Shown in pieces: positions 23,816 to 56,156 of a stretch of DNA of 64,000 nt. The notes under the pieces are model-generated. The model saw only the letters and a list, made by a program, of their open reading frames with translations. It ran no database searches and was not told the origin of the DNA. Each line of letters begins with the position of its first letter. Within the stretch, counting starts at the first letter, position 1. The stretch is taken from assembly GCA_029856125.1 (NCBI GenBank), contig JAHQWJ010000120.1, positions 1 to 64,000 on the forward strand, written 5' to 3'. This DNA is from Promethearchaeia archaeon (GTDB lineage: Archaea > Asgardarchaeota > Lokiarchaeia > Sigyniarchaeales > SOKP01). The translations under genes and the position numbers were made by a program.

Positions 23816-24079
23816 TTAATAGCGATTTCTTCTGCCGCCTCGATTATACGAATCCATTGAAGGAGGGGCTTTTTCGGTTACTACAACATTTGAAGCTTGA
23901 GGACCTTTTTGGCCTTCGGTTACTTCAAACTCAACCTTATCGTTTTCGTTTAATGTCTTGTATTCGTCATCTCCACCAGCTAATGCGGAGAAATGAACAA
24001 AGACATCAGTACCATCTTCAGAATTAATAAATCCAAATCCTTTTCGTGAATTGAACCATTTTACTGTTCCTGTAGTCAA
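23816..24079 (-). CDS. Cold-shock domain protein with Arg/Gly tail (TTG start)
   Basis: GTVKWFN, KGFGFI (RNP1), VFVHF (RNP2), KGPQASNV. Confidence 0.93.
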
Positions 24080-24405
24080 AAAATTTCAACCAATTTTGTT
24101 TTTTTTTTAAAATTCTTTAATTTTTTCTTAAAGAATTAATTACAAAAAGAATCCATGGGTAATTAATTTTTCCTTTTAAACATAGTATCCTTCATTAAAA
24201 ATTCACATTTTTAAATATTTTGTAAGAATGCCATCGATTCATAAAGGCTTTAACAAGATGTTTGAAGAATTAAAATTTTATACTAAAAATTATTAAAAAA
24301 AAAGAGATAAGGTTAGATAACAATCGCAAAAAGAGTTTTTTACTTTTATTATTTAATACTTATTATATTTAATTACGTTTGTAGATTTATTCTAACTCAT
24401 TTAAA

Positions 24406-24693
24406 TTAATAGCGATTTCGTCTTCCGCCGCCGCCACCGCCTCGATTATACGAGTTAAATTGAGGTGGAGCTTTTTCGGTTACGACAACATTGGAAGCTT
24501 GAGGGCCTTTTTGACCTTCGGTTACTTCAAATTCAACCTTATCGTTTTCGTTTAACGTTTTGTATTCGTCATCTCCACCAGCTAATGCGGTGTAGTGAAC
24601 GAAGACATCGTCACCTTCTTCTGAATTAATAAATCCAAATCCTTTTCGTGAATTGAACCATTTTACTGTTCCTTTAACCAATTTTAAAACCAA
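24406..24693 (-). CDS. Cold-shock domain protein paralog (TTG start, possibly 24681)
   Basis: Near-identical to 23816-24079; tail [13 protein letters not shown]. Confidence 0.93.
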
Positions 24694-24807: not shown

Positions 24808-25641
24808 TTAATCTACCCAAAAACCTTTTGCCAATCTTCTTCTCGTTTGCCACAAACCATCTTTAGCAGTGAAGCCGAGAACGCCTTTGCCTTGATCTGC
24901 GTCTTTTATTTGCCAAAATCCACTCACCGCTCCCGTTAAAGCGCCGGATAAAACTTCGAAACCTTGAGCTGTGTATAAATCACATTCTACGCCCCTGTTA
25001 ATAATAAATTTTAATTGACGCATTCCTTGTTGATTTTTGGATTTAAGCACTTCTAGTAATCGCTCAACTTCTTCATCTAGTTGATCGTTGGCAACAACTC
25101 GGTTCCATAAATTCCATTCAACAGCCTTTTTGCTCGTGTGAAGCGCTCCAATAAGATTGATTTCCTTCGCTCTTCTTCGACCTATTAATCGTGCTAAGCG
25201 CGTCGTACCACCCCATCCTGGAGTTATTCCAACATCCACCTCAGGCATACCCCATTTTGAGCGTTCCGTAGCTATAACAAAATCACAAGCCATGGTAATC
25301 TCCAACCCCCCTCCCACAGCAAAACCGTCTACCGCGGCTATAGTCATTTTATCCAGTTCCTCGAGCTGATTGGCCATATTTTGATAGTATCGAACTCTTC
25401 GAGTTATATCGTTAGCGTTTCCCCATTTAATCATCTCTTTAATATCATCGCCAACGCAGAAGTTTGGACCCTCACCTTTGATGACCAAGAATTTGAGCTT
25501 TGTAGATTGTCTCACAATTTCTATGGCTGCGACGATTTCTTCTGAAAGCTTCATGCTTAACGCGTTCATCACCTTAGGTCTATTGAGTAATATCCAGGCA
25601 GTCTCTTCATTTTCCCTATAAATTAAATTTTCGAATTTCAT
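24808..25641 (-). CDS. Enoyl-CoA hydratase/isomerase (crotonase)
   Basis: LNRPKVMNAL, GGGLE, PEVDVGITPGWGG. Confidence 0.9.
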   Translation of the reverse strand: MKFENLIYRENEETAWILLNRPKVMNALSMKLSEEIVAAIEIVRQSTKLKFLVIKGEGPNFCVGDDIKEMIKWGNANDITRRVRYYQNMANQLEELDKMTIAAVDGFAVGGGLEITMACDFVIATERSKWGMPEVDVGITPGWGGTTRLARLIGRRRAKEINLIGALHTSKKAVEWNLWNRVVANDQLDEEVERLLEVLKSKNQQGMRQLKFIINRGVECDLYTAQGFEVLSGALTGAVSGFWQIKDADQGKGVLGFTAKDGLWQTRRRLAKGFWVD

Positions 25642-25717
25642 AATTTATTCTTAATTCACGATAGATTTTAAATTTATATTGCTTAATTACCAATTTTTCT
25701 TTAAATCTTAGATAAAA

Positions 25718-25725
25718 TTTATAAA
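25718..25725. promoter_or_regulatory. TATA box (TTTATAAA), 26 nt before the leader uORF ATG
   Basis: Matches archaeal TATA consensus; spacing fits a leaderless transcript starting near 25750; palindromic, so may also serve the divergent crotonase gene. Confidence 0.5.
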
Positions 25726-25751
25726 ACAGAAGGGATTTGCATACATTAATA

Positions 25752-25844
25752 ATGGTTCTGAAGAATGCAGCTCTAATGAGCTCAGTAAAAGAATTTTTAC
25801 AGAAAAAGGTATTACTTCAGACATTATTACAATTATTATTATAG
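25752..25844 (+). CDS. Putative leucine-rich leader peptide of leuS (MVLKNAALMSSVKEFLQKKVLLQTLLQLLL)
   Basis: Manual translation; 10 of 30 codons are Leu, 7 of the last 10; ends 112 nt before the leuS start. Confidence 0.6.
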   Translation: MVLKNAALMSSVKEFLQKKVLLQTLLQLLL

Positions 25845-25864
25845 CGATACAAATCCGCGTGATC

Positions 25865-25882
25865 TTTTTCTTTTAAATTTTT
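25865..25882 (+). terminator. U-rich tract between the leader uORF and leuS (candidate conditional terminator)
   Basis: TTTTTCTTTTAAATTTTT 20 nt after the uORF stop; archaeal terminators are oligo-U tracts. Confidence 0.4.
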
Positions 25883-25956
25883 GACGGGTTTGTTTGCCAA
25901 GCATATAAAATTTAATTGAAAAAGTCTGGAAATGACAAGATGAAGATGAGTATATC

Positions 25957-28845
25957 ATGTATGATCCTAAGCAAATAGAAAAAAAATGGCAAGATAAATG
26001 GGAACAGGCAAAAATTTTTGAAGCTGATCCGATCGCCAACAAGGAAAAGATTTTTATGACTTCTCCTTATCCGTACGCTTCTGGCCCTTCACACATAGGT
26101 CATGGTAGGAGTTTTGTGAACGGAGATGTTTTTGCGAGATATTATCGTGCAAAGGGATATAACGTATTGTATCCCATGGCATTCCATATAACAGGCACTC
26201 CTGTGTTAGCAATATCTTCTTCCATTGAAAGAAATGATAGAGAAACGATAGAACGAATGGAAGAGTACGTATCGTTGCATACAACGGATCGAGAACAAGT
26301 AATAAATATTGTCGAAAGCTTTGTTGAACCCTGGAATATAGTGAACTATTTTTCGGACACTTACAAAATCGATTTTAAAGCTTTAGGTATGAGTTTAGAT
26401 TGGAGACGAGAATTTACAACTGGTGATAAACTCTACAATAAGCTAATTGAGTGGCAATTTCATAAACTATTCGACCAAGGATATTTAGAGAAAGGTGAAT
26501 ACCCTATTTTATATTGTCCTCAATGTGAAAACGCTGTAGGCGAGGACGATATTGCCAGTGGAGACGAATTAAATTTAGACATTAACGAATATACTTGCAT
26601 CAAATTTCCATTTGAGGATACTTATCTAGTTCCTTCTACATTGAGGCCCGAAACAATCTACGGTGCGACTAACTTATGGATTAATCCTACTGGTACATAT
26701 GTATACGCTAAAGTGAATGGGGATACATGGATTATTTCTGAGGAAGCTACTTTACTTCTAAACAATCAGAATAAGGATGTGGAAATACTTGAGAAATTGA
26801 AGGGAGTAGATCTAATTGGAAAGAAGGTTAAGAGTGTAGATGGTAGCCGAGATCTTTTAATTTTGCCTGGAGAATTTGTAGACACTACAGTTGCAACTGG
26901 GGTAGTTTACTCAGTACCAGCCCACGCTCCATACGATTATATCGCTTTATTAGACTTACAAAAAAATGAGGCAGCTATAAAGAAGTTCAATTTAAACTCA
27001 GAGGAAATAAAGGAGATAGAGCCTATTCAAATCATTGACTTATTGGATTTCGAAGATTTTCCCGCAAAAGTTTATTGCGAAAAGTTCGATGTTCATACTC
27101 AAACTGATTACGAAAAATTAAATAAAGCGACAGCTGAGAATTATAAAGTAGAATATTATAACGGAATTCTGAACGATAAGTGTGGTAAATACAAAGGACT
27201 AAAAGTGAATGAAGCTGTGGTTAAAGTTATTGACGATTTGATTGAGGATGGAATGGCTGATAAAATTTTTCTACCAATTACTAAAGATCTAAAATGTAAG
27301 TGTGGAGAAGAAATATTGGTTTCGATATTAAGCGATCAATGGTTTTTAAATTTTAATGCGGGAGATTGGAAGCAAAAAGCGTCAAGATGTTTGAGTAATA
27401 TGAATATTGTTCCCAATAAATATCGCATGAACTTTGAACATGTGTTTAATTGGTTAGAAAAAAGACCTTGTGCGCGGAAAAGAGGCCTTGGAACTCAGCT
27501 TCCATTTGACGATAATTGGATTATCGAATCTTTAAGCGATTCTACAATTTATATGAGTTTCTACACCGTAATTCATCTGATAAAGAAAAATGATCTCAAA
27601 CCAGAGCAGCTAATACCAGCGTTTTTTGATTATATTCTATTAAATATGGGCGATATCAAAAGCCTATCTAATGAAGCTAAGATTGAAATAACTGTATTAG
27701 AACAAATGCAACAAGAATTTGAATATTGGTATCCCGTAGATCATAGACATACAGCAATAATGCATATTTCCAATCATCTAAGCTTTTATATATTTCATCA
27801 TGTCGCTATTTTTCGAGAAAAACATTGGCCAAAAATCGTCTCTTTAATGGAACCAGTAATTATAGAAGGTCAAAAAATGGGAAAATCTAAAGGAAACGTA
27901 ATTTCAATAGCAAATATAATATCTAATTACTCGGCTGATTTATTCCGTTTTTATATCTCTCATAGCGGCGATTTTGGAATCAGTGTAGATTGGCGTGAAA
28001 AGCAAATACAAATCCTAAAAAATCACATATTACGGTTCTATAATTTTATTTCGGAAAATACAGCTAAACTAAGTAAAATTGAAGGAAAAATCGAGAACAT
28101 TAACACAAAATATGCAAATATCGTTTTATCGAAATGCACTAAGAAATTTGTTGAAGCGGAAAAGGGTTTGAAAGATTTAAACATAAGGAAATATCTTCAA
28201 CTCTCTTTTTACGAGGTTTTTAATATAATTCAAGATTTTAGTAGATTTTGTGAAGATGCGAATGATGTTTTAGAAGTTTATAAAATTATTTTTACAAATT
28301 GGGTAAAAATCCTTTCTATAACCATGCCTCATCTATGCGAAGAACTATGGGAGATGATGGGAAACACCAATTTCCTTTCAAAGGTCATTTGGGATGATTT
28401 TAACAAAGAATACATTAATAACGATATTGAACGTGAATTTGATTATATTTCTGAACTAATATCTGATGTTTTGAACATTCAAAAAATTGTTTCTTCTAGT
28501 GATCAGAGCAAATATTATCTGTACACTGCTCCAAGCTGGAAATTTGAAGTTTTAAAAATAATAATTTTAAAAGAGGGAAATTTCAAAGAAGTAATTGATG
28601 AATGTAAACTTAAAGGTGATTTAATCAAAAATAAAGATTTGATCTCGTACGTTAAAAATCAAATTAAAGATAGGATTTGGGAGAAGGATTTGAATGTATT
28701 AAATGAAGAAATCTTATTAGAAGAATACAGAGAATACATTGAAAAAAGAATTAAGGGCAAAATATACATTAATTCAAAATACGATCCAAAAAACCGGTCA
28801 GTGAAAGCAGTTCCATTTAAACCAGCGATTTACGTAGATATTTAA
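25957..28845 (+). CDS. leuS: Leucyl-tRNA synthetase, archaeal/eukaryotic type
   Basis: PYPYASGPSHIGH, TLRPET, TGVVYSVPAHAPYD, IESLSDSTIY, NHL, KMGKSKGN, C-terminal AVPFKPAIY. Confidence 0.95.
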   Translation: MYDPKQIEKKWQDKWEQAKIFEADPIANKEKIFMTSPYPYASGPSHIGHGRSFVNGDVFARYYRAKGYNVLYPMAFHITGTPVLAISSSIERNDRETIERMEEYVSLHTTDREQVINIVESFVEPWNIVNYFSDTYKIDFKALGMSLDWRREFTTGDKLYNKLIEWQFHKLFDQGYLEKGEYPILYCPQCENAVGEDDIASGDELNLDINEYTCIKFPFEDTYLVPSTLRPETIYGATNLWINPTGTYVYAKVNGDTWIISEEATLLLNNQNKDVEILEKLKGVDLIGKKVKSVDGSRDLLILPGEFVDTTVATGVVYSVPAHAPYDYIALLDLQKNEAAIKKFNLNSEEIKEIEPIQIIDLLDFEDFPAKVYCEKFDVHTQTDYEKLNKATAENYKVEYYNGILNDKCGKYKGLKVNEAVVKVIDDLIEDGMADKIFLPITKDLKCKCGEEILVSILSDQWFLNFNAGDWKQKASRCLSNMNIVPNKYRMNFEHVFNWLEKRPCARKRGLGTQLPFDDNWIIESLSDSTIYMSFYTVIHLIKKNDLKPEQLIPAFFDYILLNMGDIKSLSNEAKIEITVLEQMQQEFEYWYPVDHRHTAIMHISNHLSFYIFHHVAIFREKHWPKIVSLMEPVIIEGQKMGKSKGNVISIANIISNYSADLFRFYISHSGDFGISVDWREKQIQILKNHILRFYNFISENTAKLSKIEGKIENINTKYANIVLSKCTKKFVEAEKGLKDLNIRKYLQLSFYEVFNIIQDFSRFCEDANDVLEVYKIIFTNWVKILSITMPHLCEELWEMMGNTNFLSKVIWDDFNKEYINNDIEREFDYISELISDVLNIQKIVSSSDQSKYYLYTAPSWKFEVLKIIILKEGNFKEVIDECKLKGDLIKNKDLISYVKNQIKDRIWEKDLNVLNEEILLEEYREYIEKRIKGKIYINSKYDPKNRSVKAVPFKPAIYVDI

Positions 28846-53399: not shown

Positions 53400-56156
53400 A
53401 TGACAAGCGAATTAACGAAAATTTACGATCATAGCGTAATTGAAAAAGAGTTATATGAATGGTGGGAGAAAGAAGGATTCTTTAGACCAGAGAAATCCAA
53501 AGAGTTAGGGCTCACTAACGAGGATTCTGAACGATATTGTATAACAATTCCTTTACCAAATGTAACTGGGCAACTTCACTTAGGACATGCAATTACTATC
53601 TCTTTAGAAGATTTAATGACCCGATACGAGCGCATGCGCCATAAAGAAACTCTTTACATACCAGGTACAGATCACGCTGGCATTGCAACTCAAAATGTCG
53701 TCGAACGTGAACTTTTGAAGCAAGGCATTAAACGCAAAGATTTAGGACGGGAAAAGTTTGTTGAAAAAGTTTGGGAATGGAAAGATAAGTATCAGAAACG
53801 AATTACGGAGCAATCAAAAAGTTTGGGGATTAGTAGTGATTGGACTCGAGAACATTTTACATTAGACCCTGATTTATCACGAGCAGTTCGCGAAGCATTT
53901 TATAGACTTTATAATAAGAAATTAATTTATCGTGGAGAATATCTAGTTAATTGGTGCCCTGGAAGGTGTGAGTCGGCAATTTCTGATCTCGAAACAGAAT
54001 CTATAGAAGAACAAGGGCAATTATGGTATATAAAATATCCAATTATTACCAATTCCTGGAATGGTCCTCAACATCCTTGGTCAAGTGGTAAGTGGGCGGA
54101 AGGCGTAACAGATTTTATTATTGTAGCAACAACTAGACCGGAAACATTATTAGGAGATAGTGCGATTGCAACAATAGGTTCACATCCAAAATACGCCAAA
54201 TATATTGGAAAGAAAGCAGTGTTACCAGCAGTTGGTCGTTTTATCCCAGTTATTGTAGACGAACATGTAGATCCCGAATTTGGAACAGGAGCCTTAAAGA
54301 TTACTCCCGCACACGATCCAAACGATTTTGAAATAGGACAAAAACATAATTTGGAGTTTATAAATATTTTTAGTGAGAATGCAGAGATATTACCTGGTTT
54401 CGTTGATTCTTATACTGGATTAGATAGATATGAGTGTCGAGAAGCTATAATTAAGGATTTGGAAAAAGAAGGGCTTTTGACTGAAATTGAACCATATAAT
54501 TACGCCATCGCACATTGCCAGAGATGTCACACTATAATTGAACCTCGTGTCTCAATTCAGTGGTTCGTGAGTACAAAAACACTTGCAGAAGCTGCAGTGG
54601 AAAAAGTACGCGCTGGGGAAACCAAAATCATTCCTTTCCGAGAAGAACAGCGATTCTTTCAATGGATGGAAAATATTCACGATTGGTGTATTTCACGTCA
54701 GCTCTGGTGGGGCCACAGAATCCCCGTCTGGTATTGTGACGATTGTGATGCTGAAATATGTCCTAAACCTGATGTAGATGCAGTCGAAACCTGTCCAAAA
54801 TGCGGTAGTTCCAAAGTTCATCAAGATGAAGATGTGTTAGATACTTGGTTTTCTAGCGGATTATGGCCGTTTTCGACTTTAGGATGGCCTAATGTTGATC
54901 ATCCAGACTTCAAAAGATTTTTCCCTACAGATACCAGAGAAACAGGTTATGACATCCTCTTTTTTTGGGTTGCTCGAGAATTGATGATGGGTATTGAATT
55001 GACAGGACAAGTACCCTATCATATGGTGTATTTACATGGTTTAATAAGGGATGAAAAAGGAAAGAAAATTAGTAAATCGATGGAAAATGTGGATCAATAC
55101 GATCCTTTAGTAATTATTAAGGAATTCGGAGCAGATTCTCTTCGTTACGTTCTCATCTCTAATAGTGTCCCTGGATTGGATACGAATTTGGACCCAAAAA
55201 ACATTGATGTTGCCCATAAATATTGTAATAAAATCTGGCAAGCGTCTCGCTACGTTTTAACAAACATTACTTCAGAAGAGAAAATTCCCAAAATCGATGA
55301 ACTCGAATTGGATAAGCTAAAATTTCCCGATAAATGGATTCTTTCTCGCTTGAACTCATTGATTAGAGATGTACAATCGTACATGGATAATTACGATTAC
55401 TTAAGGATGACAAGAGAAATAAAATCGTTTTTTTGGAGTGAATTTTGCGATTGGTACATTGAGATGAGCAAGATTTTTCTATACGATGAGAGTTATTCTG
55501 ACAAACATGTTCAGAAGGCGATACTCCTCCACGTATTAGAAACATTCTATAAATTATTACATCCTGTTATGCCGTTCATCACTGAAAAATTATGGCAAAC
55601 TCTTCCAGACAACCTTAAAACTACTCCCACAATAATGTATGCTCCTTGGCCAACAGCGCAAGAATCATTTATCGATCCAACCATAGAAAATAGTTTTCTC
55701 TTGATGGCAGATTTTGTTCGGGAGGTAAGATGGGTAAAACATGATTTTGGAATTCCCTTAAAAACACTTGTTCCATTACAAATTTCAATTGAAACTGAAG
55801 CTCATCGAGAATTGTTTGAATTATGTAGGAACGAATTAGTTAAAATGGCATTTATAGACGAAAATAAATTTATTATCGATAAAAAAATCGTCCCACCTCC
55901 TCAATCAGCCCGAATTGTGCTTAGTGGAATACCTGCATTTGTTCCCTTGTCTGGAATGATTGATCTTGAGAAGGAAAAAGCAAGAATCAACACATCGTTA
56001 GAAAAAGCCAGAAAAGAAGCAAATAAAATCGATAAAAAGCTTAAGAGTCAATTTTCCGAGAGAGCTCCAAAAGAATTAGTGGAAAAGGAAAGGCAAAACC
56101 TTGAAGAATTAAGGATTAAAATCGAACAACTTGAAGATCAATTAAAAATGCTCTAA
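53400..56156 (+). CDS. valS: Valyl-tRNA synthetase (bacterial/eukaryote-like, with C-terminal coiled coil)
   Basis: PNVTGQLHLGH, DHAGIATQ, TTRPET, WCISRQLWWGH, DTWFSS, KISKS. Confidence 0.95.
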   Translation: MTSELTKIYDHSVIEKELYEWWEKEGFFRPEKSKELGLTNEDSERYCITIPLPNVTGQLHLGHAITISLEDLMTRYERMRHKETLYIPGTDHAGIATQNVVERELLKQGIKRKDLGREKFVEKVWEWKDKYQKRITEQSKSLGISSDWTREHFTLDPDLSRAVREAFYRLYNKKLIYRGEYLVNWCPGRCESAISDLETESIEEQGQLWYIKYPIITNSWNGPQHPWSSGKWAEGVTDFIIVATTRPETLLGDSAIATIGSHPKYAKYIGKKAVLPAVGRFIPVIVDEHVDPEFGTGALKITPAHDPNDFEIGQKHNLEFINIFSENAEILPGFVDSYTGLDRYECREAIIKDLEKEGLLTEIEPYNYAIAHCQRCHTIIEPRVSIQWFVSTKTLAEAAVEKVRAGETKIIPFREEQRFFQWMENIHDWCISRQLWWGHRIPVWYCDDCDAEICPKPDVDAVETCPKCGSSKVHQDEDVLDTWFSSGLWPFSTLGWPNVDHPDFKRFFPTDTRETGYDILFFWVARELMMGIELTGQVPYHMVYLHGLIRDEKGKKISKSMENVDQYDPLVIIKEFGADSLRYVLISNSVPGLDTNLDPKNIDVAHKYCNKIWQASRYVLTNITSEEKIPKIDELELDKLKFPDKWILSRLNSLIRDVQSYMDNYDYLRMTREIKSFFWSEFCDWYIEMSKIFLYDESYSDKHVQKAILLHVLETFYKLLHPVMPFITEKLWQTLPDNLKTTPTIMYAPWPTAQESFIDPTIENSFLLMADFVREVRWVKHDFGIPLKTLVPLQISIETEAHRELFELCRNELVKMAFIDENKFIIDKKIVPPPQSARIVLSGIPAFVPLSGMIDLEKEKARINTSLEKARKEANKIDKKLKSQFSERAPKELVEKERQNLEELRIKIEQLEDQLKML

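Follow-up and report, generated by a model that had tools for sequence, protein, structure and literature searches.

A conserved leucine-rich leader and predicted two-state RNA switch upstream of an archaeal-type leuS in one family of Lokiarchaeia

The archaeal-type leuS gene of a Promethearchaeia archaeon (assembly GCA_029856125.1) is preceded by a real and conserved leader, which very probably works as a ribosome-read gauge of leucine. On the comparative evidence set out below, we place the probability that this leader exerts ribosome-read leucine control through an RNA switch, whichever its polarity, at roughly three in four; the sensing of leucine by a ribosome on the leader is the firmer component and appears highly likely. 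The leader would constitute a variant of leader-peptide attenuation new in archaea, whose output step we infer. Leader-peptide attenuation is usually treated as bacterial, and a literature search, with most subscription papers outside its coverage, found no archaeal or Asgard case; the nearest archaeal hint is TrpY and its second-codon Trp, which Xie and Reeve are said to have described in 2005. A conserved Asgard case would show transcription-translation coupling close enough for regulatory use.

The window is the whole stretch of DNA that was analyzed, 64,000 nucleotides of contig JAHQWJ010000120.1, in which the leader and its gene comprise the following features.

25711..25725, + strand: BRE-like purine run and TATA box (TTTATAAA at 25718-25725), the leader promoter
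25747..25829, + strand: helix P1, in which ~25747-25769 (5' part of the upstream open reading frame, uORF) pairs with ~25809-25829 (first Leu codons)
25752..25844, + strand: uORF of 30 codons with a Leu run at its end (ATG at 25752, TAG at 25842-25844)
25844..25857, + strand: arm C, the 5' arm of hairpin C:D, beginning in the stop codon
25858..25884, + strand: U-rich loop of C:D, with U4+ tracts at 25865-69, 25871-74 and 25878-82
25885..25897, + strand: arm D, the 3' arm of C:D
25904..25910, + strand: TATA-like element TATAAAA in the spacer between D and E, unconserved
25918..25930, + strand: arm E, which pairs with 25854-25870 (inner arm C and the first U-tract) in competition with C:D
25957..28845, + strand: leuS, encoding an archaeal-type LeuRS of 962 aa, the second LeuRS of the genome

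A re-check of the sequence found the TATA box, uORF, Leu run, U-rich stretch, TATAAAA element and leuS just where the preliminary description had placed them. The 5' neighbor is a divergently transcribed enoyl-CoA hydratase gene, so the promoter must lie inside the 315-nt gap that separates it from leuS. Across homologues, a TTTWWA motif occurs 28-38 nt 5' of the uORF ATG, with a peak at 34 nt (43 of 69), and a Shine-Dalgarno (SD)-like motif precedes the uORF in just 2 of 69; this combination points to a probably leaderless uORF. Two other studies yielded DNA contigs identical to the window over 25620-27062, and either study is a possible source sample. Coverage in the one RNA run (n=1) falls only on a neighboring gene.

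Within the uORF of the window, Leu occupies seven of the last ten codons, and the control codons are 21, 22, 25, 26 and 28-30. The earlier caveat that runs of TTA arise by chance in AT-rich DNA finds support in the low GC content of this genome (33%), and its companion suggestion, that TATAAAA could be a separate leuS promoter, in the presence of that element in the window copy. Against a background of 2,240 intergenic ATG-initiated ORFs of 18-45 codons from the same genome, however, just two carry at least seven Leu in the last ten codons, one preceding leuS and the other leuACD; the binomial P is ~4e-5 per ORF, and ~0.08 such ORFs would be expected in the set. The comparison of Leu enrichment with other intergenic ORFs that had been proposed as a check thus came out well above background. 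The leader moreover recurs at every family locus described below, and the second TATA element scores at background in homologues (7/68 versus 10%), a weakly supported figure given the poorly resolved weight matrix. Chance is therefore refuted as an account of the uORF, and a chance repeat accompanied by a leuS promoter of its own at 25904 retains a negligible probability; a minor second promoter at that position in the strain of the window is possible. A genome-wide generic scan for uORFs followed by hairpins was too noisy to use.

All 73 family loci of archaeal-type leuS with upstream DNA (70 in a first examination and 3 in a further one), from four genera, carry the leader, so the search for Leu-rich uORFs in relatives that the preliminary description had called for was answered positively; these relatives are not independent of each other. 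The homologous uORFs span 25-32 codons, with 4-8 Leu in the last ten, and occur down to ~60% protein identity. On the tree, codon 21 shows 10 codon changes, all of them silent, and is a Leu codon in 67 of 67 rows; codon 22 has undergone 17 codon changes and 4 residue changes, and the middle codons 22-34 changes, of which most altered the residue. All six Leu codons and all three stops are in use, TTA leading with 338 of 463, and the anchor distance is divisible by 3 in 34/34. This comparative record gives good support to the earlier proposal of leucine sensing by a translated leader of cognate codons. The doublet of codons 21-22 lies outside P1 in most homologues, which indicates that the constraint acts on the amino acid; in the subclade of the window a longer P1 takes in the doublet, and the TTA run is in part also constrained by P1 pairing. 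The best-conserved Leu codons sit 7-9 codons 5' of the stop, many homologous uORFs end on a non-Leu codon, and at four loci (L011, L164, L174 and L180) the stop falls inside arm C so that the last codons belong to the hairpin. A count of stop codons by frame was circular and was dropped as evidence. In a separate observation on this genome, ARAGORN detected tRNA-Leu genes with GAG, CAG and three TAG anticodons but no tRNA for TTA, the dominant codon of the leader; such a tRNA is probably unassembled or intron-containing.

Downstream of the promoter, the leader RNA is organized around three helices, P1, C:D and loop:E, which beat 500 of 500 shuffles on cells paired and on covariation score, as well as slid controls, in tests that ignore relatedness. 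The family core helix of P1 is 89.8% paired, with 35 cells changed on both sides (0/500 shuffles); RNAalifold returned no P1 consensus. In the subclade of the window P1 is longer, shifted in register, and contains two small internal hairpins (fold z -2.68). Hairpin C:D comprises 13 pairs, is likewise 89.8% paired and has 8 pairs changed on both sides (0/500 shuffles), and loop:E is 87.4% paired with 5 pairs changed on both sides (0/500 shuffles). Because inner arm C is common to both, C:D and the extended loop:E are mutually exclusive, and in 67 of 68 homologues loop:E has the greater stability. The window copy has lost ~44 nt near 25918, after the core of E, relative to three sister species, and despite its short E it can still adopt either fold (-16.6 and -19.2 kcal/mol); the same short spacer recurs in a contig of a third study. 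Folding with a masked ribosome footprint rated C:D at 0.95 with the ribosome absent or its A site at least 5 codons upstream of the stop, versus 0.02 with the ribosome at the stop, and this computed difference indicates that the position of the ribosome can set the fold. Covariation and the computed footprint model describe mutually exclusive helices gated by ribosome position. The folding model leaves the U-tracts of the loop unpaired in C:D (0.8) and pairs them in loop:E (0.1), and in both early states the loop is free of pairing. Rfam gave no match near gathering score for the leader RNA. A K-turn was considered and rejected: the hairpin of the window has a k-turn-like bulge and GA/GA pairs, which homologues do not keep.

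The arrangement of these helices alters the role that had been assigned to the U-tract at 25865-25882. Rather than a terminator tail, it is the loop of the 13-bp hairpin C:D, sequestered in the competing loop:E, and a scan of the leader for a bacterial-type terminator (a GC hairpin followed by a U-tail) found none. Nor could a stalled ribosome mask the tract directly, as had been envisaged, since it begins 20 nt past the stop. A U4 tract is nonetheless present in the C:D loop of 65 of 68 homologues, two tracts in 51, and this loop is the sole leader segment with conserved U4 tracts (after E they occur in just 10/68). The archaeal termination factor aCPSF1/FttA binds U4 tracts and prefers two, its Loki orthologue behaves alike, and Loki aCPSF1 works in Methanococcus (PMC8716108); FttA reads the RNA at a distance of 36 nt from its 3' end, and competition between ribosome and FttA has been stated only as a hypothesis (PMC11616081). 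With at least two U4 tracts in the loop and an aCPSF1 gene in the genome, the C:D loop is a candidate aCPSF1/FttA site. Terminators of this kind share these traits (PMC8716108, PMC11616081) and have been described at gene ends and inside operons, whereas we did not find a ribosome-gated one reported in a 5' leader.

We consider it likely that the switch controls termination or RNA cleavage, probably through aCPSF1/FttA, and at that level the polarity in which C:D is the ON fold is the somewhat better supposition. The leader mRNA would start at or beside the AUG, and a ribosome would follow RNA polymerase along it. With ample Leu-tRNA, the ribosome would get to the stop and cover arm C, blocking C:D; the U-rich loop and arm D would then stay open, or enter loop:E, and transcription would end in the leader, most likely via aCPSF1/FttA. 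With scarce Leu-tRNA, the ribosome would linger on the upstream Leu codons, leaving C free so that C:D forms first, and the polymerase would read into leuS, leading to synthesis of the spare LeuRS. Two arguments favor C:D as the read-through fold: a ribosome stalled at the most invariant Leu codons, 7-9 codons upstream, would leave C free, and in bacterial attenuators, too, a weak helix forms early and blocks a strong one that comes late. The choice of aCPSF1/FttA as reader follows from its presence in the genome, its binding to two U4 tracts, and its action within 36 nt of the 3' end. The weak point of this model is how C:D would shield an open loop from FttA. If correct, the leader would be a compact reporter for ribosome-FttA competition.

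As neither early state closes the loop, the opposite polarity and control of translation or processing stay as rivals. C:D might instead be the OFF fold, showing its U4 tracts to aCPSF1, with a stall on the last Leu codons covering C so that loop:E forms, hides the tracts and permits read-through. Such an arrangement, which we regard as rather unlikely, would suit the greater exposure of the tracts in C:D, the preference of aCPSF1 for two of them, and the position of the control run, which lies directly against arm C in all classes, including those with C inside the uORF. It would, however, turn the gene off in starvation whenever the ribosome stalled at the best-conserved Leu codons, because C is then free; in the model, C:D is lost only when the ribosome stalls on the last codon, and many uORFs finish on a codon other than Leu. 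The stability order of the two helices, early weak and late strong, is also that of bacterial antiterminator and terminator. Less probable again is translational attenuation, with the switch governing how ribosomes load on leuS, or endonucleolytic cleavage within the loop. The lack of a classical terminator would fit either, as would a probably leaderless uORF with its control codons at the end, recalling a mycobacterial system (bioRxiv 10.1101/834739), and arm E of many leuS leaders contains an SD-like AGGUG. Yet E lies ~40-60 nt 5' of the leuS AUG with no helix over the start codon, arm E of paralogous leaders is without the SD-like motif, and its pairing with C accounts for the SD-like letters.

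A further possibility, and an improbable one, is that the peptide itself matters, as a small hydrophobic protein or arrest peptide, or that the RNA binds a protein or ligand, with P1 in AT-rich DNA producing the Leu run as a side effect. Every variant does end in Leu, Ile or Val, TTA is dominant, and codons 23-26 pair in P1; but the run of hydrophobic residues is short and those in the middle of the peptide vary freely, the Leu doublet that lies beyond the common P1 register has undergone synonymous change only, and the RNA lacks an Rfam match. The residue, moreover, matches the downstream gene, as would not be the case for a structural by-product, and the leuACD leader couples a Leu run to a different RNA.

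Support for ribosome-read leucine control extends beyond leuS. A covariance model of the downstream RNA has matches in 98 of 135 family genomes, and the matches outside leuS follow uORFs of the same size with Ile-rich or mostly Val-rich tails, the Ile-rich tail before an FrhB-wHTH gene and the mostly Val-rich ones before small proteins and one acyl-CoA dehydrogenase. The codon run thus tracks the gene, being Leu before both LeuRS types and before leuACD. In the genome of the window, a 32-codon uORF with 9 Leu in the last ten lies 90 nt 5' of leuA-leuC-leuD (C140:6231, - strand; L094), in a leader whose RNA differs from the leuS type. An Ile/Leu/Val-rich uORF with the same RNA fold as the leuS leader precedes a gene for an FrhB-family 4Fe-4S protein with a TrmB-like wHTH (C129:2979, + strand; L031) and is conserved in 17 relatives. 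Two tandem Val/Leu-rich uORF-plus-switch cassettes were also seen at C123:10889 and 11529 (- strand; L032), each before a protein of 64-68 aa, and the leader of the acyl-CoA dehydrogenase gene (L163, genome G051) has 8 Val in its last 12 codons; this enzyme is possibly a catabolic target. Cognate-codon uORFs were absent before the 13 other aminoacyl-tRNA synthetase genes checked in this genome (Val, Met, Cys, Phe, tRNA-synt 1b, 2 and 2b members, and the bacterial-type Leu gene), so the screen of such genes suggested in the preliminary description yielded none. Separately, a 19-codon Arg-rich ORF preceded by a TATA box lies 153 nt 5' of a 345-aa gene (C152:51448, - strand); it may encode a small protein like L41e or be a further leader. 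PF00133 members in the genome comprise a ValRS (window 53400-56156), two LeuRS and a MetRS, with no IleRS, which is probably missing from the assembly; relatives show matches of 1060-1095 aa.

The regulated gene is, as had been proposed, an archaeal-type leuS: its product scores 929 bits against TIGR00395 (cut-off 648.5), and the HIGH, KMGKS and CP1 editing motifs are intact. It is, however, a second, patchy and dispensable LeuRS, present in 72 of 135 family genomes versus 123 of 135 for the bacterial type. Because the archaeal-type enzyme groups with the copy of the sister family and with other Asgard enzymes, it is probably an inherited copy, retained as a spare. A lineage with an acquired bacterial-type LeuRS would, on this reading, keep its archaeal LeuRS as an inducible spare. 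The bacterial-type leuS of this genome has no leader, and none was present at 27 of the 30 bacterial-type leuS loci examined in the family; two genera without an archaeal-type gene have a Leu-rich uORF, with the same C, loop, D, E layout, before their bacterial-type leuS. The leader was also absent at all 30 leuS loci examined in other Asgard families and at four in the sister family, which limits the element to one family among the genomes searched. ORFs before the leuS genes of G068 and G070 were rejected as Leu-poor and antisense to a divergent gene. In three genomes (G124, G112 and G076; loci L034, L036 and L037) the unchanged leader is followed by a LeuRS from a distant clade of archaea, with 31% identity; two of these genomes have the same neighboring genes, which suggests replacement of the LeuRS in place. 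We tentatively suggest, at somewhat less than even odds, that the leader is a family-own attenuator module, in which a leaderless uORF and a two-state RNA gate the CPSF73-like nuclease aCPSF1/FttA, and that this module is portable, serving three unrelated LeuRS genes and, through Ile and Val runs elsewhere, a branched-chain amino-acid regulon without a transcription factor.

Among known systems, the closest in logic are the classical leader-peptide transcription attenuators leuL, ilvL, trpL and pheM-pheST of E. coli. The Asgard leader resembles them in its short ORF of cognate codons before an aminoacyl-tRNA synthetase gene or biosynthesis operon, in control codons that are paired in an early helix with the stop at the start of the next arm, and in its mutually exclusive helices. 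It differs in its archaeal host, TATA promoter and probable leaderless start, in having U-tracts in a loop in place of a GC hairpin and U-tail, and in the absence of sequence or Rfam likeness. As it lacks an intrinsic terminator, we do not file it among the classical attenuators, though it would work like pheM-pheST or leuL. T-box riboswitches precede leuS in Firmicutes, where an aminoacyl-tRNA synthetase gene is likewise controlled by tRNA charging; the Asgard leader has neither a T-box Rfam match nor a specifier stem, and its reading frame is under coding selection. Attenuators of the classical kind have been predicted for Streptomyces leuS and trpS2 (PMC1262725), and the Asgard leader would work like the first of these as well. 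In the actinobacterial LEU element before leuA, the Leu-codon run forms a pseudoknot with the SD of leuA (PMC1262725). The Asgard Leu-codon run, like that of the LEU element, takes part in a helix, but it pairs with the 5' part of its own uORF. The polycysteine leaderless sORFs of mycobacteria, which form a Cys ribulon, have a leaderless uORF, as is probable for the Asgard leader, and share with it the run of a single codon type near the uORF end and the several loci per genome; they act through a duplex that hides a downstream SD (bioRxiv 10.1101/834739), whereas the start region of the Asgard gene is unpaired in most folds. Elsewhere in the window, positions 23816-24693 (- strand) hold two near-identical tandem cold-shock-domain genes with TTG starts and Gly/Arg-rich tails.
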